DNA of 27,769 bases from an uncultured virus (IMG/VR IMGVR_UViG_2061766007_000494) (taxonomy: Duplodnaviria > Heunggongvirae > Uroviricota > Caudoviricetes): IMG/VR virus record IMGVR_UViG_2061766007_000494. One strand, written 5' to 3'. The translations under genes and the position numbers were made by a program. Shown here piece after piece: positions 1 to 17,467 of the stretch; the first letter of the stretch is position 1; each line of letters starts with the position of its first letter. The notes beneath the pieces are model-generated. The model was not told where the DNA came from. It ran no database searches and saw only the letters and a list, made by a program, of their open reading frames with translations.

Positions 1-575
1 TGTTTGACAAGGACGCGGAGGAAACATGGGGCGATAACCCGCAGACGATAGGCGAAGGAAATCCTCCTGAAGAAATCGGGGGGAGAAAGGCTGTCGGCGT
101 TCTGGTAGTCAAGGATGGCAAGTATCTTGTCGGAACCAGAATCAGCAATACCGGCTACGGGCAAATCTGCGGCCCCGGTGGACACGTGGAACCGGGCGAG
201 AATCCTGCCTACGCCGCGATGCGCGAGACGGACGAAGAATTCGGTATCATCCCAAACGACCTGTACTTTATCGACTGTAAAGAACCTGATTCGGAAACCG
301 GGTTGGAAAGCTACATGTTCCTCTGTACGGACTTCGAGGGCGAGCCGAAATGCGATGACGAAGAAATGACCGGTGCGCATTGGCTGTCCGACAAAGAAGT
401 TGCCCTGCTGGAAGACAACGCATTCCCCGCATTCCTGAACGGGATAGAAAGAGTTAAGAAATCTCTTGAACACCCGGAGGAAGAACCTGACGAAGAATAC
501 CCCAACGTAAGAGACAAAGACGAAGGGAAACCGATGGTTTCAGCCTTCCGAGGCGGAATCGAAACCAGAATATAA
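1..575 (+). CDS. 5'-truncated ORF ending in a Nudix hydrolase domain (probably the C-terminus of the portal protein)
   Basis: The frame of ORF 186..575 is open back to nt 3: FDKDAEETWGD...RKAVGVLVVKDGKYLVGTR...CGPGGHVEPGENPAYAAMRETDEEFGI. It has a complete Nudix box GX5EX7REUXEEXGU at 180-248. Portal identity is inferred only from its position before MuF. Confidence 0.85.
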   Translation, partial: FDKDAEETWGDNPQTIGEGNPPEEIGGRKAVGVLVVKDGKYLVGTRISNTGYGQICGPGGHVEPGENPAYAAMRETDEEFGIIPNDLYFIDCKEPDSETGLESYMFLCTDFEGEPKCDDEEMTGAHWLSDKEVALLEDNAFPAFLNGIERVKKSLEHPEEEPDEEYPNVRDKDEGKPMVSAFRGGIETRI

Positions 576-634: not shown

Positions 635-829
635 ATGAAGGTCAAGAGTGTTGAAGAACTGAAGTTCATGAGCGAGGAGCTGCAAAGGGCTTACGTTGCG
701 AAGTGTGCGGACTACTGGGAAAAGAACTTCATGGGAAAAGACTGGGAGAAGATGAACCCGGAGGAACAGGAAGAAGACGATAAGTTGAGGGACATATTCC
801 GGTACGCGAGAATAAACCTTGATGATTGA
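635..829 (+). CDS. small helical protein, 64 aa; paralog of 4654..4851; candidate orphan immunity protein
   Basis: Own promoter and RBS. Aligns by eye with ORF 4654 (MK..S...L..M.......YV.K ... EQ...D....D.FR..RIN.D). Confidence 0.75.
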   Translation: MKVKSVEELKFMSEELQRAYVAKCADYWEKNFMGKDWEKMNPEEQEEDDKLRDIFRYARINLDD

Positions 830-1656
830 ATAGCGGGGAGGGAAACCTTCCCGCTTTCTTTGTGGATATGGACGAGATTGCCAAGAAATTCAAAGGGCGG
901 AAAGTGCTTCCGAGCAGAACCGTACCGATATATCCGAAAAGCGCCGAACGAGAGATACAAAGACTCGTTGGCGCTTATTTTATTGAGCTTTCAAAAGTTG
1001 TTCGTGACGGCGGAAGCTATAAGCGCATTGAACGGATGGCGACCGGGAAGTCTGTGTCGGGCAGGATTGACAAGATATCCCGTCAGGTACAATACCACGC
1101 AATCAGAGAGTGGAAGCGATGCCTGCAAGATACCTTGGGTGCGGATGTCCCCGCAGACTACTACACTAATCTGTTCAAGGATACAGCCGAAGAGTGGAAG
1201 AAGTCCGTAGCGGAGCAGCTTTCCGGTTTTCCAGAGGCGGCGAAGCAGTACAAGAAGGAAATACTTCGAGAGTGCCGCAAGAAGGGCATGACAAAGCAGG
1301 AAACCAGACGGGAACTGAGCATGAAACTTGCGTCACAAAAGCGGCAGGCGAAAGCAAGGGCTGTGGCTTCTGTTGCGAATCTGTTTGGCGATTTGAGCAG
1401 GCTTCAGCAGAAGGACGCGGGATGCAAAAGGTACAAATGGAGAACTCAAAGGGACAGCCGCGTGAGGTCATGCCACAGGGCGCTGGAAGGAAAGATTTTT
1501 TCTTGGGACAATCCGCCTATGATGTGGAGAGAAACTGCACACGGAATCGTTTACACGGGCGAGAGATGCAATCCCGGTGAAGACTGGGGATGCAGATGCA
1601 TCGCAATTCCTGTGTTTGATATAAGTAGCCTGACATTACCTGATATGGGGGAATAA
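826..1656 (+). CDS. MuF / SPP1 gp7-like minor head protein (short form, no toxin extension)
   Basis: C-terminal YKWRTQRDSRVRSCHRALEGKIFSWDNPP...PGEDWGCRCIAIP is the MuF signature. The ORF ends soon after CRC. Start uncertain (TTG 826 or ATG 868). Confidence 0.9.
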   Translation: MNSGEGNLPAFFVDMDEIAKKFKGRKVLPSRTVPIYPKSAEREIQRLVGAYFIELSKVVRDGGSYKRIERMATGKSVSGRIDKISRQVQYHAIREWKRCLQDTLGADVPADYYTNLFKDTAEEWKKSVAEQLSGFPEAAKQYKKEILRECRKKGMTKQETRRELSMKLASQKRQAKARAVASVANLFGDLSRLQQKDAGCKRYKWRTQRDSRVRSCHRALEGKIFSWDNPPMMWRETAHGIVYTGERCNPGEDWGCRCIAIPVFDISSLTLPDMGE

Positions 1657-1658
1657 TA

Positions 1659-2444
1659 ATGGACAACAAAGAAGCAATCGCCGCTTGGAGAGCACGGAGG
1701 GAAAAACGCCTATCGGCACGTGGTATGTCCCATAAGGACGAAGACCAATGGGTGACTATAAAGGGTACGCATGTTCTTGTTGGGGAAAACGGGAAAATCA
1801 AGAACAACTTCATCGACGGGAAAGCAGAAGCTCGTTTAGGCGGAAAGAATATGCGTGAAGTAGACAAGGGAATCCAAAAGAAAAGCGAGCCTGAAGGTGC
1901 CGAACAGAGTGTCGGAAAGAAAAACAACAGGCACAATGAAGTATACGGGCCAGTTACCCTAAGCGATGAAATAAAAGACATGGCTGTAGATTTCAAGGAT
2001 AACCTTGTGTCCCTTACTGGAGATAACGGAGAGAGCGCGAATAAGCATATTGGGGAAATCAATAAGACCATTAACAATATGCTGCAGTCACTCAAAAAGT
2101 CTAAAGAATACAAGGGAAGTAATGGGAGACTGGCAAAGACTGATTGGGCAGAACCGTTTGCCGAGGAAATCAGCACACATCTTCCGGCTCGTTCAACCAT
2201 GAAAATCGGGAATACAGAGTATGAGCTTTTGGAAAAGAAGCCTATGGGTGGAGGCGGATATTCTTCCCCGGTTTGGTATGGGAATGACGGAAGCGCAATG
2301 GATACCGCTACATTTGCCTGGAGGCTGTACGACCACATGAAAAATGGCGGTGAGTCCATTGAAATTACCAAAATAGGTAATGGGAAAGCTCCGAAACGAG
2401 CGTATGTGAAGAAAATGACTCTTGAAGAGTACATGGACTCGTGA
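1659..2444 (+). CDS. hypothetical head-associated protein with shared N-terminal leader (cargo 1)
   Basis: MDNKEAIAAWRARREKRL leader resembles ORF 5225. WVTIKGTHVLVGENG.I.NNF resembles ORF 2455. Starts 2 nt after the MuF stop. Confidence 0.8.
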   Translation: MDNKEAIAAWRARREKRLSARGMSHKDEDQWVTIKGTHVLVGENGKIKNNFIDGKAEARLGGKNMREVDKGIQKKSEPEGAEQSVGKKNNRHNEVYGPVTLSDEIKDMAVDFKDNLVSLTGDNGESANKHIGEINKTINNMLQSLKKSKEYKGSNGRLAKTDWAEPFAEEISTHLPARSTMKIGNTEYELLEKKPMGGGGYSSPVWYGNDGSAMDTATFAWRLYDHMKNGGESIEITKIGNGKAPKRAYVKKMTLEEYMDS

Positions 2445-2454
2445 GGTGCAAAAT

Positions 2455-4641
2455 ATGGATTCGATAAAGAAACCACAAAAGAGACAAATAAAACGTCTTG
2501 ACGAATACAAAAACAGCGAAAACTGGGTGACGATAAATGGCGTTCATGTGCTTCTGGATAAGCATGGGAACGTCATTAACAATTTCAAGGACTCAGACCA
2601 CAAGCTTAAGAATCTTCGATTCGTGGACGCTGTAAGTTCCCACACAGAGGGAGGGAAGAAGGTCATTGATGCTCCTATCAATCGAAAGACACACGAAGCG
2701 AAGTTCAACGACACCATGAAGAAGATTGCGAGTGCTCTTGGCGGAGGAGCTATCAAGAAGGACGATGCTCAGAAGCGGATGGCGAATGCATTTGCCAATC
2801 TGGAGCAGGGCGCAATCATCAATGCAGGTGACACCAAAGCCTTGAAACTGGGTAAGGGTCTTTTCAAGCTGAAGGGAATGAAAGGGAACTTTACCGCAAA
2901 GCAGCTCGCGGAGAAAGTCATGGGCGGCGTGAAGGTCAATGACTTTACGGGTGATGTTGATGGGATGCCTACCGTGAAGGAAGGAACAAACACCAATATT
3001 ATCCAGAAGGGAAGCAAGCGTATCTCCCATGTGGCGACGAACGCTCTGGAAGACCTGTACAACAAGTACAAGTCAAACAAGTACAGTCGTGAAGGGCTTC
3101 AGAAGCTTGCTAAGGGATACCTTGAAAGCCTGCCGAAAGGCTCTGAGCTTAATGTCGGGGGGAACACCTTCAAGAAGAACGACAAAGTGTGGAGCATCGA
3201 AGCGGATGGTGAGGAACACACGATTGCCGGGAATATGGTGGCAAATATCCTTCTGAACAGCATGAGCACGGGCTATGCGGGAGGAACGCTGAATGCGAAG
3301 ATTCCCGAAGCGAGTGCTGCGACTGAAAAGAAGGTCGAAAAGTCCGCTGAGAAAATCGCGGAGAAGAAGCCTGTCAAGACTCCCAAGGAAAGTGAACCGG
3401 CTGACTATCCGACTGACAAAGAGATAAAGAAAATGGCTGAAGAGTTCGAGAAGGAAACCCCGGCTCCCGCTCCAAAGCTTATGTCCGATTCTTTGAAGGA
3501 AATCGTTTCCGGCAGCGGTACACCCGCTGAGAAGAAGGATGCAATTACCAAGTTCCTTACAGAGCTTCCCGATGGAACGGCGATTTCGTATGAAGCGACG
3601 AGTAAGACCACCGGTGAGTTGTATGTGGTCAAGGGAATCAAGGAAGGGGATAAAATCAAGTTTACGACGAAGGAAGCTCCGCTGCATGGCGTAGCGAAGT
3701 CCTTCCTGAAGAAGCTTGAAGAGGGCCTGCACGTTGGCGGCTCCGACGAAGAAGCGTTCGCGTGGGCAAAGTCCAAAGCTCCCACTACCGAAGTTGCGAA
3801 GCCTGAAGAAAAGGCTGAGGAAAAGCCTGCCGAGAAGCCTGCCGCCGAAGAAAAACCCGCTGAACCCGCAAAGCCTTCCAAAATCTTCGCAACCGATAAG
3901 ATGAACAAGCTTGCTACTATTCCGGTTGACAAGAGCAAGTATACACCTGAGAAAAAAGACACGGCGATGAAGGAGTGGACATCACCGAGCCATTGGGATA
4001 ATGTCCAGAAGAAGTATAAGACGAAATCTATGGAGTGGTTCAAGGGACTTCCTGAAAAGGTTCGTGGTTGGTTCGAACACTACACAGGTGGCGGATATAT
4101 GGCTATCAACAATGCACTCCGTAATGCTGGTTCTGATGGGCTGGATGACTACATGACCAACAAGGTAAATGCTATGACCGAAGAGCTTGCTAAAAACAAG
4201 CTGACCGAGCCGACGATTCTGCGGCGCGGTGTTGGTTATGAAACTATGGCAAGTATGTTCGGCATGAGCTACGATGAAGTTGAAAAGCTCGCTATGAACC
4301 CGGAGAAATTCAAGGATACGTTCCTCGATAGCGTTGGCGTAGACAACGGATTTGGTTCTTGCGGCACCGCGCCTGGAACCGGATTTATGAAGCAATTCGA
4401 CTTTGAAATCTACTGCCCCGAAGGAACTGAGGCTGTGTTCGCAAATCCGTGGTCAACGCACAAGTCCTACACAAAGGGCAGCGGTGAGTTTGAGACCATC
4501 GTTCAGCGCGGCTCCGCATACAAGATTACCGGGATTGAGCCGAAGCCTTACGGAAGGTTCAAAATCAAGTGCGAGATTATCGCGCAGCGGCAGTTCGTCG
4601 ATAACTTCGGTGATGCAATTACCGGAAAGCTTGCCGCGTAA
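2455..4641 (+). CDS. large protein with C-terminal VIP2/ExoS-like (R-S-E clade) ADP-ribosyltransferase domain (cargo 2)
   Basis: YTGGGYMAINNALR (about 4081), ILRRG (about 4216-4230), GFGSCG (4348-4365, STS-equivalent) and EFE (4486-4494) followed by IVQRGSAYKI. The better start is ATG 2455 behind GAGGTG, not 2422. Confidence 0.85.
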   Translation: MDSIKKPQKRQIKRLDEYKNSENWVTINGVHVLLDKHGNVINNFKDSDHKLKNLRFVDAVSSHTEGGKKVIDAPINRKTHEAKFNDTMKKIASALGGGAIKKDDAQKRMANAFANLEQGAIINAGDTKALKLGKGLFKLKGMKGNFTAKQLAEKVMGGVKVNDFTGDVDGMPTVKEGTNTNIIQKGSKRISHVATNALEDLYNKYKSNKYSREGLQKLAKGYLESLPKGSELNVGGNTFKKNDKVWSIEADGEEHTIAGNMVANILLNSMSTGYAGGTLNAKIPEASAATEKKVEKSAEKIAEKKPVKTPKESEPADYPTDKEIKKMAEEFEKETPAPAPKLMSDSLKEIVSGSGTPAEKKDAITKFLTELPDGTAISYEATSKTTGELYVVKGIKEGDKIKFTTKEAPLHGVAKSFLKKLEEGLHVGGSDEEAFAWAKSKAPTTEVAKPEEKAEEKPAEKPAAEEKPAEPAKPSKIFATDKMNKLATIPVDKSKYTPEKKDTAMKEWTSPSHWDNVQKKYKTKSMEWFKGLPEKVRGWFEHYTGGGYMAINNALRNAGSDGLDDYMTNKVNAMTEELAKNKLTEPTILRRGVGYETMASMFGMSYDEVEKLAMNPEKFKDTFLDSVGVDNGFGSCGTAPGTGFMKQFDFEIYCPEGTEAVFANPWSTHKSYTKGSGEFETIVQRGSAYKITGIEPKPYGRFKIKCEIIAQRQFVDNFGDAITGKLAA

Positions 4642-4653
4642 AGGAGAAGGAAC

Positions 4654-4851
4654 ATGAAGATTCTGAGCAGAAAACACCTCGTCGAAATGAGAAGCAAGGA
4701 AATCTCCGATTATGTGGAGAAGCTTGACAGGCAGCTCGAAAAGAAGGGCTGGTACGAAAAGTCCAAGAAAGGCGAACTGACCGAGGACGAGCAGAAGCTT
4801 TTCGACCGCATCATGGATGACTTCCGCTGGCTTCGCATTAACGCTGACTAA
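4654..4851 (+). CDS. small helical protein, 65 aa; candidate cognate immunity/partner of the ART
   Basis: RBS AAGGAG directly after the ART stop. Paralog of 635..829. Confidence 0.75.
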   Translation: MKILSRKHLVEMRSKEISDYVEKLDRQLEKKGWYEKSKKGELTEDEQKLFDRIMDDFRWLRINAD

Positions 4852-4883
4852 CAAGCAAATCTTTGAGAAAATCAAGAAAACGC

Positions 4884-4911
4884 TTGACAAAAGGCGCGGA
4901 TGTGATATAAT
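4884..4911 (+). promoter_or_regulatory. sigma-70/sigma-A promoter P2 with extended -10
   Basis: TTGACA (4884-4889), 16-bp spacer ending TGTGA, TATAAT (4906-4911). RBS GGGAGGGTGA precedes ATG 4933. Confidence 0.85.
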
Positions 4912-4932
4912 GGCGGCTGGGAGGGTGATGAT

Positions 4933-5163
4933 ATGCACGATGTAACTCCGAAGTTCGTTCATGAATACGGCTACGATGATGCGGAAGGAAACTTCCGCAT
5001 GAAGGATGAAGCCCCAGTCGAACTGAAAAAGAAGTTCGAGATATGGTACAACAAGAACTTCGCTTTCGAGGACGAAGGGAAGGAAGACCCGTGGTATACA
5101 TGGGATGCCAAGGTGATTGAGAAGAAGGACAGGTCAAAAAGACCTGAGTTCGCCAAAAAGTGA
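4933..5163 (+). CDS. small acidic/aromatic protein, 76 aa; moron-like, candidate immunity protein
   Basis: Bracketed by promoter P2 and an intrinsic terminator. Contains the motif FRMKDEAPVELKKKFEIWY. Confidence 0.75.
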   Translation: MHDVTPKFVHEYGYDDAEGNFRMKDEAPVELKKKFEIWYNKNFAFEDEGKEDPWYTWDAKVIEKKDRSKRPEFAKK

Positions 5164-5172
5164 AGAAACCGC

Positions 5173-5205
5173 AAAAGCCGCTTGGGTTGTCCCAGGCGGC
5201 TTTTT
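5173..5205 (+). terminator. intrinsic (possibly bidirectional) terminator
   Basis: AAAAGCCGCTTGGG-TTGT-CCCAGGCGGCTTTTT: 14-bp stem with one G:U pair, A tract before and T tract after. Confidence 0.85.
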
Positions 5206-5224
5206 CTGTGGGTGGTGAAAGTAC

Positions 5225-6757
5225 ATGACCGACAACAAAAACGCGATTGAGGCGTGGCACAGGCGGCGAGAGAAGCGTTTAGCAGAGAGAACCCGGATGG
5301 ACTTCGAGGTTGGCGATTATGGCCCCGACGAAGCAGGAGATAAAGGCACCTCACATGGCAACACACGCTTGCCCTATGGGCTTTGCAAATCAGCCGGTAT
5401 AGATACTACTGGTATGTCGCCTAGCGAAGCATGGGAAGCTCTGGAAGGTAAGACGGGAGTTTCCGCAAAGGAAGCGTATAAAGACATCAAAAAGTATGGA
5501 ACCGCAAAGGCTGTGGACATTCCGAAGAAGAGTGAAAACGGCAATTTGCCAGGAACCGAAGAACTGAGCAACCGGGGGCCGATTCCTGAACCGTTCGAAA
5601 AGGGGAAGCCTGAGAAAAGCAAAGCTGTCCAAGATGCGCTGAAACGAATCGGAAGCGTAAAGTCCGTAAAGACCGAGGAACAGATTCAGGAGCAGCTAGA
5701 CAAGCTGAAGTCCGAGTACGGCGAAAAGGGTGTTGTCGGTTTTGTGACCGCAGGCGGGAGAGAGCATCACTTTGACCTTTCGCATCCCATGATTGCATCG
5801 AACATTGCATACTTCAAGAAAGACGGGCCACTCTTCATGTTCGCCGGTAAGGATGAATCCGATGCTAAAAGCGAAGTCAAACAGATAGTTGACGGTTGGA
5901 AAAAATCCGGTGACATAGACAACATTCTCCGCGCCTACGATTACGATTTGGTTGAGCTTAGGAAGCAGAAGGGACGAGGGGATATCACCGTCGAGGAATA
6001 CGAATCCTTGTCCGGCGAAAAGAAAAAAGAACGAAGTAAAAGAGTCCTGAAATCGCTTCCGACATACGATGATTGCAAGACCACCCGGCAGGTTGCAGCC
6101 AGAATGGACGCACAGGGAAATTTCAAAGCCGCAGCGTACTTCAGCTCGAATGCGGCGGTTGAAAACGCGAGGGAAGCCGCTGTTTCTGCTGAGAAAATGT
6201 TCAATATATTCCCAACGATGAAGGGACGGGTTGAAAGTATCAACGCTTCTGTCCCGAAAAGCAAGTCTTATGCGTGGGTTGAGAATAAAACCGATTCTGG
6301 GATATACCTTAGCAAAACATATATGGCAGACCGGAAAAAATTGGAAGAACTGTACGATACCGATGTGAAATACGGTTTCCATCCGCCCGGAACAGACTCA
6401 AAGGCCATCGTGTATCACGAGTTCACGCACGTTATTGACTTGAACCTGTCTTCCTATGCAAACAAGCATGGTGGAATTCCGGGACATCCAGGGGCGAAGG
6501 TTTCCACTGCAATTGCAAGAGATATGGCATTGGCTCGCGGAATAACGCTTACCGAATTGAAGAAACGGGTTAGCAAATATGCGTTGAAAAAGTATAAAGA
6601 AACCGGAAACAATGAGCTGGAGTTTCTTGCTGAATGCATGGCAGAATACTTGGGAAGTCCGCACCCGCGAGAAATAGCTGTGGATTGTGCGAACAGACTT
6701 TTCAAGTACATGAGACAGTTTTGGGGAGATAAAGCTGTAAACGAAAGCGCAATCTGA
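5225..6757 (+). CDS. protein with shared leader and C-terminal zincin-type metallopeptidase domain (cargo 3)
   Basis: HEFTH (6416-6430), then SKYA and EFLAE (6620-6634) supplying the probable third zinc ligand, a spacing like lethal-factor/Pro-Pro endopeptidase-type zincins. N-terminus MTDNKNAIEAWHRRREKRL. Confidence 0.8.
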   Translation: MTDNKNAIEAWHRRREKRLAERTRMDFEVGDYGPDEAGDKGTSHGNTRLPYGLCKSAGIDTTGMSPSEAWEALEGKTGVSAKEAYKDIKKYGTAKAVDIPKKSENGNLPGTEELSNRGPIPEPFEKGKPEKSKAVQDALKRIGSVKSVKTEEQIQEQLDKLKSEYGEKGVVGFVTAGGREHHFDLSHPMIASNIAYFKKDGPLFMFAGKDESDAKSEVKQIVDGWKKSGDIDNILRAYDYDLVELRKQKGRGDITVEEYESLSGEKKKERSKRVLKSLPTYDDCKTTRQVAARMDAQGNFKAAAYFSSNAAVENAREAAVSAEKMFNIFPTMKGRVESINASVPKSKSYAWVENKTDSGIYLSKTYMADRKKLEELYDTDVKYGFHPPGTDSKAIVYHEFTHVIDLNLSSYANKHGGIPGHPGAKVSTAIARDMALARGITLTELKKRVSKYALKKYKETGNNELEFLAECMAEYLGSPHPREIAVDCANRLFKYMRQFWGDKAVNESAI

Positions 6758-6780
6758 CCGGGGAATACCCGGTCATTTCT
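6755..6780 (+). terminator. hairpin, possible weak intrinsic terminator
   Basis: TGACCGGG-GAATA-CCCGGTCA (8-bp perfect stem beginning at the stop codon) followed by TTTCT. Confidence 0.5.
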
Positions 6781-6808
6781 ATAGCTCTCCAAGGGGGAGG
6801 GGGATGGT

Positions 6809-6982
6809 TTGAAGGAGTATGAAAGAATCCCTGTGTATGTAGACATACAGAACGGCGAAACAAAATGCATCTGCAAGCACGAAAAAAAGTTGTGCGACAA
6901 GGATTGCGAAAAAGACGTGGTAACGCGGGACAAGTTTGAAGGCTGGTATTCCACGTTCCACCGAGACGAGTATGGAAGATAG
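6809..6982 (+). CDS. small Cys-rich protein, 57 aa (absent from the supplied ORF track)
   Basis: TTG start behind GGAGG (6796-6800). Translation: MKEYERIPVYVDIQNGETKCICKHEKKLCDKDCEKDVVTRDKFEGWYSTFHRDEYGR. The stop abuts the RBS of the next gene. Confidence 0.7.
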   Translation: MKEYERIPVYVDIQNGETKCICKHEKKLCDKDCEKDVVTRDKFEGWYSTFHRDEYGR

Positions 6983-6994
6983 GAGGGGTGAATA

Positions 6995-8728
6995 ATGCCG
7001 CCTACTCTGCGGCGAGTGGTACGACTTGACAGCATACCGATTCGCAAAGCAGTTTTCACCGATGAGGGCTATCTGAGAGACAAGCCAATTCTCACAAGCA
7101 CAGGCATCTTCGAGTATACGAATCCTGACGGTTCAATTCGCCGGGAACTTCGATTGCCCGAAGATGTTTTTGCTAAAGAAAGCCTCGCTAGTTACAAAGG
7201 AAAACCGATAATCATTACCCATGATGCCGGTTTGGTAACGAAGGATAATGTTCACGATAATCAAGTGGGCACTATTCTGAGCGAGGGGTTCCAGGATGGC
7301 GAGAATGTCCGTGCGGATATCGTAATCCACGACACGGACGAAATGAAGGACAGGGGCTACAAGGAATTGTCCCTTGGCTACAACCTTGACCTTGAGGAAA
7401 CTCCGGGTACTTGGCACGGTCAACCTTACGACGCTATCCAGCGGAACATTATCATCAATCATCTTGCTCTGGTGAGGGAAGCTAGGGCTGGTGAACAGGC
7501 GCGACTGAATATAGACAGCCGCGATTCTGATATCCTTAAAGGAGGAAAGAGCATGAATAAGACTCCCAAGAAGACCGTTCGCGGCGACGGCATTCTTAGC
7601 AAGGAAGAGCTTGAGCAGGCCATCAAGGAATACAAAGCTCGCCGCGCTAAGGAAGCCGACAAAGACGAGCCTGTTGCCAGCGAACCGAAGCCGGAACCTG
7701 CCCCTGATAAGACCCCGGAGAAGAAGCCGGAGTCCAAGGAGGAGGTCAAGCCCACGGAGAAGGAGAAGCCCACGTTCGACGAGGATGTGGAAGCTGTCGA
7801 GACCGTGGAGAAGAAGCCCGAGTCTGTTGAAGACAAGATTCAGCAGGTGAAGGAAAACCGCAACATGCGGGACGAGGAGGGCGACCCCAAGGATAAGCTG
7901 TCCGCTATGGGGATGATTGCCCATCAGGACGAGGACATTGACACCCTCTTTGACATCATTGACACCCTTCTGGCCGAACGGGAGTTCAAGATGAAAGAAG
8001 ACTGTGCGAAGACCGATTCCGATGATGATGCTATCCCTGACCGTGATAAGAAGGGCGAGAGCGTTTCAAACTGCGACGGGGAGGAAGTCGAGGAAGAGGA
8101 AGTCGAAGTCAAGGAAGAGCCTGAAGGCGACCCCGAGGATGACGAAGACTGGGAGGACGAAGACTGGGAGGAGGACAGTGACGAAGAGGAAGAAGACTTC
8201 GAGGTAGAGGAAGACTTCGAAGAAGACTCCGACGATTCTACTGTCTTCGAGGAAGAGGAAGAAGACTGGGAAGAAGACGAAGAGGACGAGTGGGAAGAGG
8301 AAGAAGAGGAAGTCCAGTGTGACAGTCACGATTCCGTGATTCCCGATTCCACCGGTGAAGTCCACCACGTGAAGAAGCTCAATTCCGATTCCGTGGATGC
8401 GGTCATCAATCAGCGCATTGCGCTTGGAATGCTTGGCCGCAAGCTGAACATGGACGGGCTGGAAAAGCTTGGAATCATGTCCGCGAAGAAACGTATCATC
8501 AAGGCTGTGCGCCCGAATATCCGGCTTGACGGCAAGAGCGATGCGTACATCAACGCCGCGTATGATTGCGCCGTTGACGAAATTCAGAAGCGTTCCCGCA
8601 AGGGCGTGAAATACCAGAAGAAGCAGATGTTCAACAAGGATTCCAAGGTTCGGGCCGAAGAGGGCGGCAAGTCCTCTGCCGACGCTCGCCGGGAAATGAT
8701 TGAGCGTCAAATCAACCGCAATAAATAA
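6995..8728 (+). CDS. DUF2213-type prohead protease fused to scaffold
   Basis: N-terminal TDEGYL...TGIFEY...RRELRLPEDVF...SLASYKGKPIIITH...KELSLGY...QRNIIINHLALVREARAGEQARL, followed by a long acidic, low-complexity region. Lies before the decoration and capsid genes. Confidence 0.9.
   Translation: MPPTLRRVVRLDSIPIRKAVFTDEGYLRDKPILTSTGIFEYTNPDGSIRRELRLPEDVFAKESLASYKGKPIIITHDAGLVTKDNVHDNQVGTILSEGFQDGENVRADIVIHDTDEMKDRGYKELSLGYNLDLEETPGTWHGQPYDAIQRNIIINHLALVREARAGEQARLNIDSRDSDILKGGKSMNKTPKKTVRGDGILSKEELEQAIKEYKARRAKEADKDEPVASEPKPEPAPDKTPEKKPESKEEVKPTEKEKPTFDEDVEAVETVEKKPESVEDKIQQVKENRNMRDEEGDPKDKLSAMGMIAHQDEDIDTLFDIIDTLLAEREFKMKEDCAKTDSDDDAIPDRDKKGESVSNCDGEEVEEEEVEVKEEPEGDPEDDEDWEDEDWEEDSDEEEEDFEVEEDFEEDSDDSTVFEEEEEDWEEDEEDEWEEEEEEVQCDSHDSVIPDSTGEVHHVKKLNSDSVDAVINQRIALGMLGRKLNMDGLEKLGIMSAKKRIIKAVRPNIRLDGKSDAYINAAYDCAVDEIQKRSRKGVKYQKKQMFNKDSKVRAEEGGKSSADARREMIERQINRNK
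7553..8728 (+). CDS. probable nested in-frame scaffold protein (internal start)
   Basis: AAAGGAGG (7538-7545) 7 nt before an in-frame ATG at 7553, exactly at the end of the protease domain. Confidence 0.65.
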   Translation: MNKTPKKTVRGDGILSKEELEQAIKEYKARRAKEADKDEPVASEPKPEPAPDKTPEKKPESKEEVKPTEKEKPTFDEDVEAVETVEKKPESVEDKIQQVKENRNMRDEEGDPKDKLSAMGMIAHQDEDIDTLFDIIDTLLAEREFKMKEDCAKTDSDDDAIPDRDKKGESVSNCDGEEVEEEEVEVKEEPEGDPEDDEDWEDEDWEEDSDEEEEDFEVEEDFEEDSDDSTVFEEEEEDWEEDEEDEWEEEEEEVQCDSHDSVIPDSTGEVHHVKKLNSDSVDAVINQRIALGMLGRKLNMDGLEKLGIMSAKKRIIKAVRPNIRLDGKSDAYINAAYDCAVDEIQKRSRKGVKYQKKQMFNKDSKVRAEEGGKSSADARREMIERQINRNK

Positions 8729-8743: not shown

Positions 8744-9362
8744 ATGAGTGCTCAGACCAATTACAACTACTTCCCCGTGCATGGCGCTCCCGGTGGCATC
8801 GTCGATGTCAACCCGATTGCCATTGACACCCGTATCGTCGAGGAAAACACCGGTGTTGTGTTCCCCGGTATGGGTGTTGTTACCGGCACTACTGCCGGTG
8901 TGCAGATTAAGCTTCCCGTTGCCGCTTCCGAAGTCGCTGATTTCGAGGGCATCACCATCAACCGTCGTACTACCGAGCGCGACCTTGCCGGTTCCCTGTA
9001 CGTGCGCAATAAGTCCGCTCTCGGAGTGGTCCGCTGGGGCCGCGTGTACGTGCGTGTGGAGGCTACCGCTGCTCCCGCCNNNNNNNNNNNNNNNNNNNNT
9101 GAGCGGTTCCGAGGCTGGTTGCTTCACTACCGCCGCTTCCGCTGCGACCAAGCTGCCCATCAATGGCCGCTTTCTCGGCGCGAAGGACGGCGGCGCTGCC
9201 CCTGTCGAGCTGTTCAACGGCGCTGTGACCGCTGCCGCTCCTGCTACCAATATGAGCCTCGGCGACCTGACCGACGTTGACCTGACCGGCGTTGAAGACG
9301 GAAAGGTGCTGAAGTATGTCGGCGCGGACACCAAGTGGGAACCCGGCACCGACGCGACCTAA
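8744..9362 (+). CDS. capsid decoration/cement protein (spans an N gap)
   Basis: Between scaffold and MCP. Frame 8744 (MSAQTNY...WGRVYVRV) before the 20-N gap at 9080-9099 joins the frame ending at 9362 (GCFTT...NGRFLG...VELF). Confidence 0.8.
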
Positions 9363-9388: not shown

Positions 9389-10435
9389 ATGGATAACTTC
9401 ACCAAGCACACCCATTACGACGCGAATGAGCTGAAGACCCTGCGGGCTTCCGCCATTCCTGCGGCTATCATGAATAGCCCCGGCGCTCGCTTCGACAGCG
9501 TTGAGGATGCCAGCGTGTTCTTCGCCCGTGAGCTGGACTACATCAAGGCCCGCTCCTACGATGTGGAATACCCCGAACTGACCGCTCTGAACCTGTTCCC
9601 CATCAGCACCGAGGCTGACCCCGGCGCTGAGACCATCACCTACTACACCTACGAGAAGCAGGGACTCGCCAAAATCATCGACAACTACAGCACTGACCTG
9701 CCCCGCGCCGATGTGAACGGCAAGCCCTCTATCGCTCAGGTGAAGTCCATCGGTGATAGCTACGGCTACTCCGCTCAGGAAATGCGTGCGTCCAGGCTGG
9801 CCGGTAAGTCTCTGGATATCCGCAAGGCTGAGTCCGCCCGGTATCAGATTGACTCCCTGACCAACAAGATTGCGTGGGCGGGAGATGCTGATTCCGGCCT
9901 CATGGGCGTCCTGTCCGATGGTCAGAGCATCCCTGAGTTCGTCGTGGCTGCTGGCGGCACTTCCGGTAAGACCAAGTGGACCGAGAAGACCGCTGAGGAA
10001 GTCATGGCCGATATCAACGGCATGGCGAAGCAGGTTGCCCGCGTGACTAAGAACGTGGAGCGTCCCGATACCCTGTGCGTGCCCGCCGATGTCTACATGG
10101 ACATTGCTACCCGTCAGATTCCTCATACCACCGCGACGGTCATGAGCTTCATTCTTGACTACTCTCCGTACATCAAGAAGATTATCTCTGCCGCCGAGCT
10201 GGATGCGGATTCCGTGGGCACTAACCCCTACGCCAAGGCGGACGGGAGCGGCAGCGGCGTTGCGTTCCTGTTCAAGAATGACGCTCGCAAGCTGACCCTT
10301 GAGAACCCCATGCCCTTCTTCCAGTACCCCCTGCAGACCCGCAATCTGGAGACCATTATCCCCTGCGAGGCCCGGACCGCTGGTGTCATCGTGTACTACC
10401 CCCTGTCTGCCGTTATCGCGGTGGGAGTGTCCTGA
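9389..10435 (+). CDS. major capsid protein (DUF2184/encapsulin-like HK97 fold)
   Basis: FFARELDYIKARSYDVEYPEL, DLPRADV, IGDSYGYSAQE and EARTAGVIVYYP motifs. 348 aa, strong RBS, biased codons. Confidence 0.93.
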   Translation: MDNFTKHTHYDANELKTLRASAIPAAIMNSPGARFDSVEDASVFFARELDYIKARSYDVEYPELTALNLFPISTEADPGAETITYYTYEKQGLAKIIDNYSTDLPRADVNGKPSIAQVKSIGDSYGYSAQEMRASRLAGKSLDIRKAESARYQIDSLTNKIAWAGDADSGLMGVLSDGQSIPEFVVAAGGTSGKTKWTEKTAEEVMADINGMAKQVARVTKNVERPDTLCVPADVYMDIATRQIPHTTATVMSFILDYSPYIKKIISAAELDADSVGTNPYAKADGSGSGVAFLFKNDARKLTLENPMPFFQYPLQTRNLETIIPCEARTAGVIVYYPLSAVIAVGVS

Positions 10436-12131: not shown

Positions 12132-12726
12132 ATATTGACGGCGTTAGAAGCGCAATCTATGAAATCGTGAGCCGTTATTTCGCCGGGGCAACGGTGGCGT
12201 GGGGCGATACGAATATGACAAAGCCGAGCCTGCCGTTTATTACCTTNNNNNNNNNNNNNNNNNNNNNNNNNNNNNGTGGCCCAATAAAAGATATGTGGAC
12301 GGAGAGCCGTTATATGATTATCCGTCGCAGGTGAGATTGACCGTCAATCTGTTTACGCGAGGAAAGAAGGTACTCCAAGGTTCAGATACCGCGATTTGGG
12401 AAGACACTTCCGAAAACGATATGATGGAGTTCCTGAATTTCGTAAACAGCGATTGGTTCATTCAATGGGAGAATTCGAAGAATATCTATATCAGGCCGGA
12501 AGGGCCGATTCGGAATCTTTCAGCTCTCACGAATGATATCAATTGGGAATACCGGGCTATGGCTGAGTTCATGGTAGCCTATACGGAAATTGCGGAAGGT
12601 GCTACTACGGTATGGTCGCAGAATCCGAGCGGCGGAGGTTCTCAGGAGTTGGCGGATATCACAAACGGTTGGTTCGACCACGTTCACATAGATTACGAGA
12701 ATGACCCAATAGATATGGAGGAATGA
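12128..12726 (+). CDS. tail terminator / neck protein (spans an N gap)
   Basis: Frame 12128 (…KPSLPFIT) before the 29-N gap at 12247-12275 joins the frame ending 12726 (LTVNLF…WEYRAMAEF). Directly before the sheath. Confidence 0.7.
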
Positions 12727-15327: not shown

Positions 15328-17467
15328 TTGGGCGAAATCTGGAAAGCTATGCTGATAGCCCTGCATTTTTTCGTAGATAAACAGTCCGAGAATGCCGCTA
15401 ATGATTCCGTTGCGAAGTTCGCGCAGAATGCAATGCGGCAGCTAAGGCAAATCGGAGCCGTCGCCGCCNNNNNNNNNNNNNNNNNNNNNNNNNNNNNNNN
15501 CGTCGCAGGCCGAAGAGACCGCATTCGTATTCGAGAATATCTACGGTGATTTGTCGGATTCTCAGGCCAAATGGGCGGAGGAATTCGCGGATACCTACAA
15601 TCGGAGTGCAACGAAGGTCAAAGAAACACTTGCTCAGATTCAGCATGAAATGATTGGCTTCACGAAAGCCGGTACAGACGAAGAGAAGAAAAACGTTGCT
15701 GAAATGTCCAAGACGATTGAGCAAGCGGCTCTTAACCTCGGTGCTTTCTACGGGTTAGATTCCAAAACCGCGATAAATACCCTGTTAAGCGCTACGCAGG
15801 GTTCGGATGCGGCTATGCAGACCTTCAATGTTGGGCAGGGTACGACCCTTACCCGGAACCGGCAGGAAGCAATGAGGGAGCTGTTGTCAGAGGGCGCATT
15901 GAGCGCCTATTCGGCAAGGTCCTATGAGAATCTAACTCCTTATGAGAAATCCCTAGTAAACCTGAGAACTGTCCTAAATGCGAATAAGCAGGCTACGGAT
16001 GCTCTTGCAAAAAGCCAAGGGAACTACGCCACGATGCAGGAGAATCTACAAGAATCTCTTGCAGAACTCAAAGAAACGCTTGGGAAATTCTTTTTGCCAA
16101 CGGCAAAGAAAATCGTGGACTTCCTGACTATTATCGTGCGGTATCTGAATGATGTGCTGGGAGCGGTAAAGAAGGTCACGGATTTCCTTGGCGTTACTGA
16201 GTTGGCGGTAAATATGTTGGCTGGCGGGCTGGCTGTTCTGGTCGGTATGCGGGTTGTCGGATGGGCGAGAGGCGTAATCACAGCGTTACGAGGCATAGCC
16301 ACAGCGGCAACGGGAGCTGGCGTAGGAGTCGGAGCGCTGGGTACGGCTGCTATACCCCTTGCGGTCACACTTGCGCTTCTGGTAGCGGTCTATGCGGTAG
16401 TCAGCGATATCAATAAGTTCCTGAAAGGCGAGAGTTCCAAAACCGGCACGTTTTTGGAGCGTCTAGGATTGGACGCTGAGAAGTGGAAGCCGGTACTTGA
16501 AGGACTCAGAAATGTAATCATCGCTGTAACTATGGCACTTCTAGCTATGAGAGTCGCCGCAATAGTGACCGGGACGGCGATTATGGCTACACCTGTCGGA
16601 TGGATTATCGCCGCTATTGCGCTGCTGATAGGCGTCCTAGTCGTTGTTATCAAGTATTGGGATAATATCAGAGCGAAGTTGAAGCAATGGACGGATTGGC
16701 TTCACGAGAAAATCAGTAAAGCGCCTATCTTGGCGGCGATGCTGTCGGCAATCTTCACCGGTCCTATCGGGCCAATTATTATCCTGATTCGACATTTCGA
16801 CGAAATCAAGAAAAAGGTTGTCGATTTCTTCAAGACGGTCAAAGAGACACTTACAGAGTTTGAGAATTCTATCCCCGTTTGGCTGAGGGCAATTATCGCG
16901 TTTATCATTAACCCCGCAGCCGGTATCACGTTCCTTATCAAGCATATTCAAGAGCTAAGGGACACGGCGGAAGAATTCTATAATTGGCTGTTAGGTGTAT
17001 TCGGGAAAATTCCAGATTGGGCGCAGATGTTGATGGGGCCGATTGGAGGACTGACCCTCCTAGTCGAGCATTTCGACGAAGTGAAGACGGCGGCGCAAAC
17101 GGCGTGGGAGTGGGTGCAGAAATTCTACAATTTTGTACGGCATCCCTTCGGCGGTGGGGAAGGAGACGGTGGCGGACAAGGCGGCGGACGAGGTGTGAAC
17201 GTTTCGGATGCTCTGCGGCTGTTTAACCTTGGAGCTATTGCGGATGTGCTTCAATACGCTAGGTCTGGGAATGTGAGCGGTTCGACGCTGGCGATGGCAA
17301 GCGGGACGTATAATTCCAGCAACCGGAATGTGACCCAAAACATCACGTTCAATCAGGAGTTCAAGGGTTCGGAATCGATGGACCAGAAGATAGCCAGGTC
17401 GGCGGAAGAATCGTATGAAAGCGCATTCGATAAGTTCACGAGCGCGATAGCAAAACTGCTGACTTAA
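15328..17467 (+). CDS. tape measure protein (spans an N gap)
   Basis: TTG 15328 behind AGGAGG. After the 32-N gap at 15469-15500 the frame of ORF 15551 reads SQAEETAFVFENIYGDLSD... Helical, with hydrophobic segments and repeated IKYWDNI / IRHFDEI / VEHFDEV motifs. Confidence 0.9.

Follow-up and report, generated by a model that had tools for sequence, protein, structure and literature searches.

The locus examined here raises the question of how proteins encoded among phage head genes might be selected for packaging. In a 27,769-nucleotide record of an uncultured Caudoviricetes virus (IMG/VR IMGVR_UViG_2061766007_000494; this whole stretch is called the window below), which represents a head-and-tail module, three open reading frames (ORFs) starting at positions 1659, 2455 and 5225 (ORF1659, ORF2455 and ORF5225) lie between the genes for a MuF-like head morphogenesis protein and a DUF2213 prohead protease with a scaffold-like region. 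An earlier note on this DNA had proposed that the three proteins share a portable, scaffold-mimicking N-terminal helix that admits them to the prohead. We found a genuine and portable leader; it is not the helix alone, however, but consists of two parts, a basic amphipathic helix (H) and an acidic patch that leads into one of four exchangeable second elements, or heads (W, G, N and P). We consider it probable that this leader addresses cargo to the phage head in the manner of the capsid-targeting sequence (CTS) of phage T4, with H replacing a covalent fusion to the portal protein.

The N-termini of ORF1659 and ORF5225 are identical at 14 of 20 residues (BLASTP E 2e-5). As the earlier note had observed, it is the peptide and not the DNA that has been kept, since no more than 35 of 60 bases agree across the same 20 codons, and different codons specify 9 of the 14 shared residues; with so few bases in agreement, a recent duplication or a DNA-level recombination handle behind the common peptide was ruled out. 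ORF1659 and ORF2455 have a second element in common (W-V-T-I-x-G-x-H-V-L...N-N-F; 28 of 79 residues identical, 35%, E 2e-8), and in the equivalent place ORF5225 carries a different one (H-G-N-T-R-L-P-Y-G-L..., residues 44-73). The leaders are therefore composed of H and W in ORF1659, W in ORF2455, and H and N in ORF5225. The degenerate helix formerly read into ORF2455 gave no match to a profile of H, and it is the W element that this protein shares instead.

Beyond the leader no mutual similarity among the three window proteins was detected by BLASTP, in agreement with the unrelated C-terminal domains described before. The ADP-ribosyltransferase (ART) domain of ORF2455 was also recovered (Table 1). 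For ORF5225 the zincin assignment holds in part: an HEFTH motif and two PHROG matches (phrog_7153, E 4.7e-8; phrog_21401, E 3.8e-7) speak for it, whereas its Pfam peptidase matches (M90, ATLF) fall below threshold. ORF1659 matched no Pfam, PHROG or NCBIfam family. Word-index searches, an insensitive type, returned only one 99% identical homologue for the whole protein and no match for residues 1-60 against longer proteins; residues 61-261 matched only the same near-identical protein among the fetched loci and representatives described below. A search of the ESM Atlas with the leader gave no usable match.

An AlphaFold2 (AF2) model of ORF1659 built from a 28-sequence alignment comprises a helix at residues 3-20 (predicted local distance difference test score, pLDDT, ~90), a hairpin at 30-41 with strands 30-34 and 37-41 (pLDDT ~87), a disordered stretch of ~50 residues (51-101) and a low-confidence C-terminal part. 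Within the hairpin, W31 and T33 are invariant among both 18 and 28 aligned leaders. A Tat signal peptide was considered and rejected. Such signals consist of an RR motif followed by a hydrophobic h-region, whereas the RR of H leads into further arginines and then the acidic patch, with no hydrophobic stretch.

To place the window among its relatives, 80 viral-contig loci fetched through the DUF2213 domain were scanned with motif patterns and with a small helix profile, the seeds of which included both window leaders (ORF1659 and ORF5225). The heads are defined by the motifs W-[VI]-T-[IV]-x-G-x-H-[VI] (W), G-G-P-G-S-G-N-[WF]-G-H-x-G-R-x-G-x-x-G-G-S (G), H-G-N-T-[RK]-L-P-[FY]-G-L... (N) and D-E-W-x-E-x-D-H-P-R-D-x-x-G-R-F (P), the last being seen in further loci found through the leader itself, where it follows the same basic helix (L086:9657-10540, L096:12149-13194, L096:13714-14663 and L101:4906-5612). 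The helix profile gave 58 matches of at least 12 bits among 12,620 stop-to-stop segments from the 80 loci and the window, every one of them on the coding strand; the opposite strand, which contributed about as many residues to the search, gave none. Motif matches in the related loci were similarly partitioned between coding and opposite strands (33/0 for G, 20/1 for W and 14/0 for N), counts that do not represent independent events because many of the fetched loci are closely related. Matches to the N motif occurred both at N-termini and within long ORFs. The N-terminal leaders among the best 150 matches of the profile search described below read almost as a single consensus, comprising a Met, a few residues, [AS]-[VI]-x-x-[YF]-[RK]-x-R-R-x-x-R-[LM]-x-x-R-x-D, acidic residues and then the W head; in a non-redundant list H begins 3-13 residues past the chosen start codon, and it is sometimes present twice in tandem.

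Among 72 aligned leaders, the conserved positions of H (V/I, Y/F, L/M and four Arg) fall within an arc of ~140 degrees on a helical wheel, four of these positions being constrained by the anchoring pattern of the alignment. This arc has the appearance of a discrete binding surface and not of dispersed charge. H is followed by the acidic patch, with D at +10 in 44 of the 72 leaders and acidic residues at +12 to +14. A strongly basic helix with four near-invariant Arg could also be imagined to act during or after ejection, as a DNA-binding Arg-rich helix, in passage through the tail channel or as a localisation signal in the new host; the long disordered tether behind the leader would suit such a role, and one PHROG family related to the zincin bears the name 'pilot protein for DNA ejection'. 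We nevertheless think an ejection role very unlikely, because hydrophobic and basic residues are combined on the conserved face, as in a protein interface, because a very similar helix occurs in the DUF2213 protease-scaffold, which is expected to leave before DNA entry, and because modules fused to the portal mostly lack H.

The breadth of the family was assessed with an H+W profile built from an 18-sequence alignment and searched against 1.84 billion cluster representatives. This identified 827 representatives at E<=1e-3, of which 80 reached E<=1e-10 and 3 reached E<=1e-30. In the best 150 of the 827, a single copy starting within the first 30 residues was found in 68 proteins, several copies (2-7) within long proteins in 67, a single internal copy in 9 and a single copy starting at residues 31-100 in 6. 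The profile search that the earlier note had suggested thus does place the leader at the extreme N-terminus of diverse proteins, and widely; the strictly N-terminal position expected for it was only partly upheld, as copies also occur inside long proteins, which makes the leader the head of a module and not exclusively a signal of the N-terminus. Ten clusters that were looked up all derived from metagenome assemblies, and a single one bore a name, 'hypothetical protein'. In species-representative genomes two loci were found, a clear prophage in an Oscillospiraceae metagenome-assembled genome (MAG) and a weak match in a Gemmatimonadales MAG.

The 67 proteins with several copies could be taken to mean that the leader is a mere structural module head or linker, released from polyvalent proteins by gene fission, with its likeness to the scaffold arising by convergence. 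The weak profile match of the window scaffold (13.8 bits) and the presence of further basic helices in that scaffold fit this explanation. Against it stand the strong conservation of the leader at the very N-terminus in 68 of 150 proteins that have nothing else in common, the higher scores of the relatives' scaffolds (26-33 bits, with similarity running into the acidic stretch) and the conservation of the peptide despite codon divergence, and we judge it decidedly improbable.

Leaders are also restricted in genomic position. For 65 loci in which the DUF2213 gene could be placed, 491 kb upstream and 483 kb downstream of it were scanned; H matches numbered 23 upstream of DUF2213, 35 within it and none downstream, and the upstream/downstream counts were 20/0 for W, 32/0 for G and 14/0 for N. 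A closer alignment of 14 leader proteins retrieved 21 viral loci, 8 of them previously unseen, and 66 ORFs from these were scanned with Pfam. In 7 of the 8, portal(+NUDIX), MuF, DUF2213 or PF09950 genes were found beside several leader genes, and L086, L096 and L102 each possess at least four leader-bearing genes. As the earlier note had expected, the leader is confined to head modules, specifically to the portal-MuF-protease part of DUF2213/PF09950 modules, in these seven and in the 65 oriented loci; the one exception, L098, is weighed below.

The payloads behind the leader are varied. Among 64 proteins with an N-terminal leader, Pfam identified PF03496 ART domains in 7 and a glutamine deamidase toxin in 1, with sub-threshold matches only in 2 and no family in 54; a Zeta toxin is also among the leader-bearing payloads. 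Of 37 long leader-bearing proteins, 4 begin with a portal (PF06381) and NUDIX domain, 5 contain PF03496 and 1 contains an ATLF-type metallopeptidase above the cut-off. The same payload may follow different heads. ART domains were found behind W in ORF2455, behind G with an I-R-x-R-H-type helix (L024, L029 and L030), behind P (L086:9657 and L096:13714) and inside a polyvalent ORF (L036). Likewise, the zincin domain of the ORF5225 type follows an N head in the window and W heads in stand-alone proteins of relatives, and is present up to three times in one polyvalent protein.

Alongside the ART cargo or leader genes of some relatives we also found ADP-ribosylglycohydrolase genes (PF03747; L084:12742-13661, L098:4820-5637 and L101:10971-11845), which may protect the producer. 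No such gene was present in the region of the window that was scanned, where small ORFs follow the ART gene instead. Small HD_4 (PF13328) proteins were also identified among the cargo genes of relatives (L083:1166-1596, L091:2751-3169 and L096:9787-10373) and may be hydrolases paired with a cargo enzyme.

Closer inspection of the long proteins revealed how such modules can be carried covalently. ORFs in which portal (PF06381) and NUDIX domains run on into G or W heads make up 5 of 35 leader-bearing ORFs of the related loci and 4 of the 37 long representatives, and the fusion extends to an ART domain in 1 of the 5 (L032) and in 2 of the 4 (P0040 and P0028). The L032 protein has 1981 residues, with G heads at 676 and 1629 and the ART at 1781-1970, and in P0040 NUDIX (590-692) is followed by W (788-819) and ART (829-993); another portal-NUDIX protein, in L101, ends in an Ntox50 toxin domain. 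The earlier note had contrasted the free effectors with toxins fused to MuF. That contrast needs to be redrawn, because the covalent alternative in this lineage is the portal (4 of 37 long proteins), PF04233 (MuF) being present in none of the 37. The window MuF protein itself is bare, as previously stated, and shows no C-terminal extension beyond its PF04233 domain (Table 1). A C-terminal extension of the portal should lie inside the capsid, and the portal fusions are for this reason the strongest indirect evidence that these modules are head cargo.

The distribution of H is in line with its replacing this covalent link. An RRxxRL-type stretch within 45 residues upstream of W, used as a proxy for H because a strict regular expression for the helix matched almost nothing, was present before 65 of 108 N-terminal W copies (60%) and before 20 of 138 internal copies (14%), and portal-fused modules are mostly without H. 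These patterns suggest that the helix of the free-standing versions may stand in for the covalent portal link. A different stretch, ending F-F-A-G-E-L, precedes heads in polyvalent ORFs (L036:6101-9700, L037:5201-9553 and L055:5106-8693) and in representatives P0009, P0015, P0017, P0019 and P0023, and may be another anchor or junction element.

AF2 modelling of DUF2213 residues 1-245 from a 28-sequence alignment (mean pLDDT 70) predicted a confident beta-rich domain (20-165), a disordered linker (166-199) and an isolated helix (203-221), here termed H'. Foldseek gave as best matches T4 gp21, the core maturation protease of that phage, and herpesvirus proteases, at weak E-values of 0.013-0.1; structural superposition yielded Z 9.8 with T4 gp21 (5jbl_A; root-mean-square deviation 2.7 over 122 aligned residues), Z 9.7 with the varicella-zoster virus protease and Z 9.0 and 8.8 with pseudorabies virus proteases. 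On the evidence of this model, DUF2213 has the T4 gp21/herpesvirus assemblin protease fold. H76, S126 and H156 are invariant in the DUF2213 alignment and would presumably form a catalytic site of the Ser-His-His type. We infer a scaffold function for the remainder of the protein because no separate scaffold gene lies between DUF2213 and the capsid gene. Residues 225-470 (window 7667-8404) include 106 D/E among 246, with Trp/Phe-punctuated acidic repeats near the end, and this region is a possible counter-charge for basic leaders. Towards the C-terminus lie a conserved domain and a basic helix. A second basic helix (Table 1) forms a conserved block in most of 33 non-redundant DUF2213 proteins, its resemblance to H plus acidic patch being one judged by eye only.

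The scaffold peptide reported at 7613-7651 proved to be an exact translation, corresponding to DUF2213 residues 207-219 within H', and the H-like helix is indeed conserved in the relatives' protease-scaffolds, where 35 helix-profile matches of at least 12 bits fall at the H' position with the consensus S-P-E-E-L-x-K-A-I-E-x-Y-K-A-R-R-A-x-R-[LM] (26-33 bits). An acidic stretch follows H', as one follows H in cargo, and for one pair, the L041 cargo and the L002 scaffold, the similarity continues into it.

This arrangement, a gp21-like protease fold with acidic patches behind both H and H', lends itself to the idea that the leader serves mainly as a propeptide or as a signal for processing, with H and the acidic patch being cut by the protease and head entry depending on the payloads or on the W, G, N or P heads. 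Relatives of gp21 are described, in the passages retrieved from PMC10052503, as cutting after Glu in A-x-E and removing N-terminal propeptides of 20-24 residues, and the heads also mark junctions of portal fusions, where targeting would be needless. On the other side, DUF2213 proteases have no known cleavage site. Triplets of the L-x-E/A-x-E kind occur in the leaders of ORF5225 and ORF2455 and, in the scaffold, after H', and not in ORF1659, and are too short to exceed chance. The enrichment of H at free N-termini (60% versus 14%) would also be unexpected for a cleavage signal placed at every junction. We therefore regard a purely processing role as unlikely.

A further possibility keeps the addressing function and specifies its chemistry. 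H would mimic, through complementary charge, the scaffold helix in its basic half, and the universally conserved acidic half of H' (S-P-E-E-L-x-K-A-I-E-E-Y) would be its receptor. Scaffolds with a basic half would then self-pair, and the H of cargo would compete for the site and enter the scaffold core, the cargo staying behind once the scaffold is destroyed by the gp21-like protease. Where H-bearing cargo is abundant (L036-L041 and L055), the scaffold helix would have lost its basic half, thereby freeing the receptor. Were this correct, capsid loading would follow a code that is simple, portable and programmable, has exchangeable second elements and could be used in a large group of phages of gut Clostridia. 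We hold this mechanism to be rather doubtful. The scaffold mimicry of the earlier note was not borne out, since the relatives with the best cargo helices are those whose scaffold helix lacks the basic half.

We favour instead the broader proposal of a CTS-like address. We infer that the three window ORFs would be stand-alone virion cargo, namely injected effectors, each with a portable leader that directs it to the inside of the assembling head. H would be a non-covalent anchor to a prohead component, whether scaffold, portal or shell, while the acidic patch and head would mark the start of every cargo module, with a long flexible tether following. In relatives, the modules are joined covalently behind portal-NUDIX or strung together in giant polyvalent proteins, where H would be mostly dispensable. 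Because the DUF2213 protease-scaffold has an H-like helix of its own, scaffold and cargo probably use the same docking site or pair mutually. As in the T4 CTS system, the gp21-like protease may later cut within the acidic patch and so free the cargo.

Several observations weigh against this proposal. The clearest cargo H occurs in L036-L041 and L055, in which the scaffold helix keeps its acidic half and is without the basic half, and a full scaffold H' is present in many loci whose leaders are only of the portal-fused or other kinds, so that H and H' do not simply co-vary. The H' of the window, which was not a seed, scored only the 13.8 bits given above, and ORF2455 would have to be addressed with no H that the profile detects. 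Some H-like stretches are retained internally (the 20 of 138 W copies), start codons were picked with a crude ribosome-binding-site heuristic, and relatedness among the loci reduces the weight of the hit counts. At L098 (1-10278) no head gene was present within the 10.3 kb fetched; its two leader genes lie among RadC, DUF5688, ADP-ribosylglycohydrolase, SAM synthetase (MetK) and ParB genes, an exception to an occurrence in head modules only. Finally, no cultured relative emerged when one leader protein and the leader of ORF5225 were compared by tblastn with 50,697 phage records, neither of which gave a match. As a separate observation, the gene neighbourhood in L098 rather resembles early or anti-restriction regions in mobile elements.

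All mapped genes of the window, and the leader elements within them, lie on one strand (Table 1).

Table 1. Genes and leader elements mapped in the window (positions in nucleotides; residues refer to the encoded protein).
Feature	Coordinates	Strand	Evidence and remarks
NUDIX-bearing C-terminal end of portal protein	3..575	+	PF00293 E 1.2e-16; phrog_15528 'portal protein' E 4.5e-24, profile positions 521-629 of 794; 5' end outside window
Small ORF, 64 aa	635..829	+	ORF list
Bare MuF-like head morphogenesis protein, no toxin extension	826..1656	+	PF04233 E 3.5e-13, residues 152-260 of 276; phrog_324
ORF1659, stand-alone cargo candidate, leader H+W	1659..2444	+	C-terminal part without known family
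H, basic amphipathic helix of ORF1659, residues 3-20	1665..1718	+	AF2; ORF5225 match; helix profile 29.9 bits (seed)
W head of ORF1659, beta-hairpin W-V-T-I-x-G-x-H-V plus G...N-N-F, residues 30-51	1746..1811	+	AF2; ORF2455 match
ORF2455, stand-alone ADP-ribosyltransferase, W-type leader	2455..4641	+	PF03496 E 2.8e-17, residues 527-696; phrog_3895
W head of ORF2455, residues 24-44	2524..2586	+	Preceding basic stretch not a significant H
Small ORF, 65 aa, after ART; immunity or helper candidate	4654..4851	+	ORF list; no Pfam family above threshold
Small ORF, 76 aa	4933..5163	+	No Pfam family above threshold; only sub-threshold LPD18 match, E 0.11
ORF5225, stand-alone zincin-like protein, leader H+N	5225..6757	+	HEFTH residues 398-402, nucleotides 6416-6430
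H helix of ORF5225, residues 7-22	5243..5290	+	Helix profile 33.3 bits (seed)
N head of ORF5225, H-G-N-T-R-L-P-Y-G-L...A-W-E-A-L, residues 44-73	5354..5443	+	Motif match
Small Cys-rich ORF, 57 aa, just 5' of protease gene	6809..6982	+	ORF list; no Pfam family above threshold
DUF2213 prohead protease, acidic scaffold-like region and conserved C-terminal domain	6995..8728	+	PF09979 E 1.9e-34, residues 21-171; phrog_530 'head maturation protease' E 6.5e-78
H', H-like helix of scaffold, residues 202-221	7598..7657	+	Spans 7613-7651; AF2 helix 203-221
Second conserved basic helix of scaffold region, then D-x-E-G-D-P	7835..7888	+	DUF2213 protein alignment
Capsid cement protein	8744..9280	+	PF22758 Phage_cement E 3.9e-14, residues 1-112; N run at 9080-9099
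Major capsid protein	9389..10435	+	PF09950 E 8e-58; phrog_264

In relatives, the counterpart of the truncated first gene combines PF06381 portal and NUDIX domains within a single ORF. The nearest named relative is Faecalibacterium phage FP_Brigit, in which the MuF gene directly adjoins the DUF2213 gene; because FP_Brigit has no genes between the two, the block of ~5.3 kb at 1659-6982 represents accessory genes inserted into a head module that is itself conserved. The host of the window phage is probably a member of the Oscillospiraceae; the clues are few, this Faecalibacterium phage and the one Oscillospiraceae MAG, and they point to gut Clostridia. Of the small ORFs, that just upstream of the protease gene has a comparable counterpart upstream of DUF2213 in locus L015. 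Two others, 635-829 preceding MuF and 4654-4851 following the ART gene, are 42% identical over their C-terminal 24 residues (E 1.5e-4). The record contains runs of N at 9080-9099, 12247-12275 and 15469-15500, the first within the cement gene, the frame of which is unreadable past 9080.

Searches of existing family collections and of the literature returned little on the leader. Nothing relevant was found for 8 leader-only pieces in Pfam at E up to 10, including among the LPD families of the polyvalent-protein paper, none of which matches the leader; 13 proteins gave no match in NCBIfam, and 12 proteins searched against PHROGs revealed no family for the H, W, G or N leaders. For the P head, the leader region of the only protein tested (L086:9657) weakly matched phrog_15528, a portal-fusion family, at profile positions 651-701 (E 7e-4), and also the unnamed phrog_30637 (E 0.005). 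Six literal fragments of the W and G motifs had no occurrence in searchable full text. As judged from search results alone, text searches combining cargo, leader and capsid returned nothing on this leader, and those on DUF2213 nothing on function.

Proteins injected by phages disarm or reprogramme the host, and the choice of what is packaged is understood in few model phages (T4 and P1). The leader family labels hundreds of clusters from uncultured phages, including ADP-ribosyltransferases, metallopeptidases, zeta-type kinases and many enzymes without a known family. If it is an address tag, it would supply a rule, based on sequence, by which the injected proteome of these phages could be predicted from metagenomes, would explain the interconversion of portal-fused, polyvalent and stand-alone effectors, and would offer a compact tag with which to load chosen proteins into phage heads.

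General analogies are the scaffold docking helices of P22 and herpesviruses and the cargo-loading peptides of encapsulins, in which a short peptide of the cargo or scaffold docks to an HK97-fold shell or to the portal and determines the contents; the resemblance is one of principle only. Also comparable are the MuF polymorphic toxins of Jamet et al. (2017), described in the passages retrieved by term from PMC5576092 as toxin-like domains near the portal-MuF genes of temperate phages, with small ORFs downstream; those passages make no mention of this leader. In contrast to such toxins, the window has no MuF-toxin fusion, and the covalent carrier in this lineage is the portal. Iyer et al. (2017) predicted, in the retrieved part of PMC5512222, delivery together with DNA for effectors beside or fused to portal or MuF proteins. 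The present domain repertoire (ART, metallopeptidase and NUDIX-type enzymes) matches theirs, and the window genes likewise lie beside portal/terminase-type packaging and head genes. The window ORFs differ in being stand-alone, each with at most one recognisable enzyme domain, whereas several effector domains are combined in one polypeptide in relatives (L032, L036, P0009, P0012 and P0040). The passages of PMC5512222 matched by terms other than the motifs contain no N-terminal helix or W, G, N or P heads. The leader-bearing proteins here are the stand-alone counterpart of portal-fused polyvalent effectors.

Targeting by a terminal peptide has precedents in P1 and T4. In the consulted passages of PMC9024508, the N-terminal 30 residues of P1 DarB suffice to send a reporter into the capsid, P1 is described as packaging anti-restriction cargo, and its authors report no consensus among Dar protein N-termini; here, by comparison, a single leader family spans hundreds of clusters. 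The T4 CTS, a short N-terminal peptide common to diverse internal proteins, loads them into the scaffolding core (PMC3012670, passages retrieved). As with the CTS of IPI-III and Alt, one short N-terminal peptide recurs on proteins of a single phage that are otherwise unrelated, the cargo includes an ADP-ribosyltransferase (retrieved part of PMC5512222), and a prohead protease predicted to have the gp21/assemblin fold is encoded, the likeness being one of fold only (Z 9.8). The leader here differs in being longer (~50 residues) and two-part, a helix combined with a choice of four second motifs, in occurring also at internal junctions and behind portal fusions, and in accompanying a protease that is fused to the scaffold. 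The comparison with the CTS is one of anatomy. Polyvalent and portal- or MuF-fused effectors (PMC5512222), MuF toxins (PMC5576092) and the CTS idea have thus been described already, as far as the retrieved passages of these papers extend; what would be new is a CTS-like addressing system with a modular, two-part and widely distributed leader.

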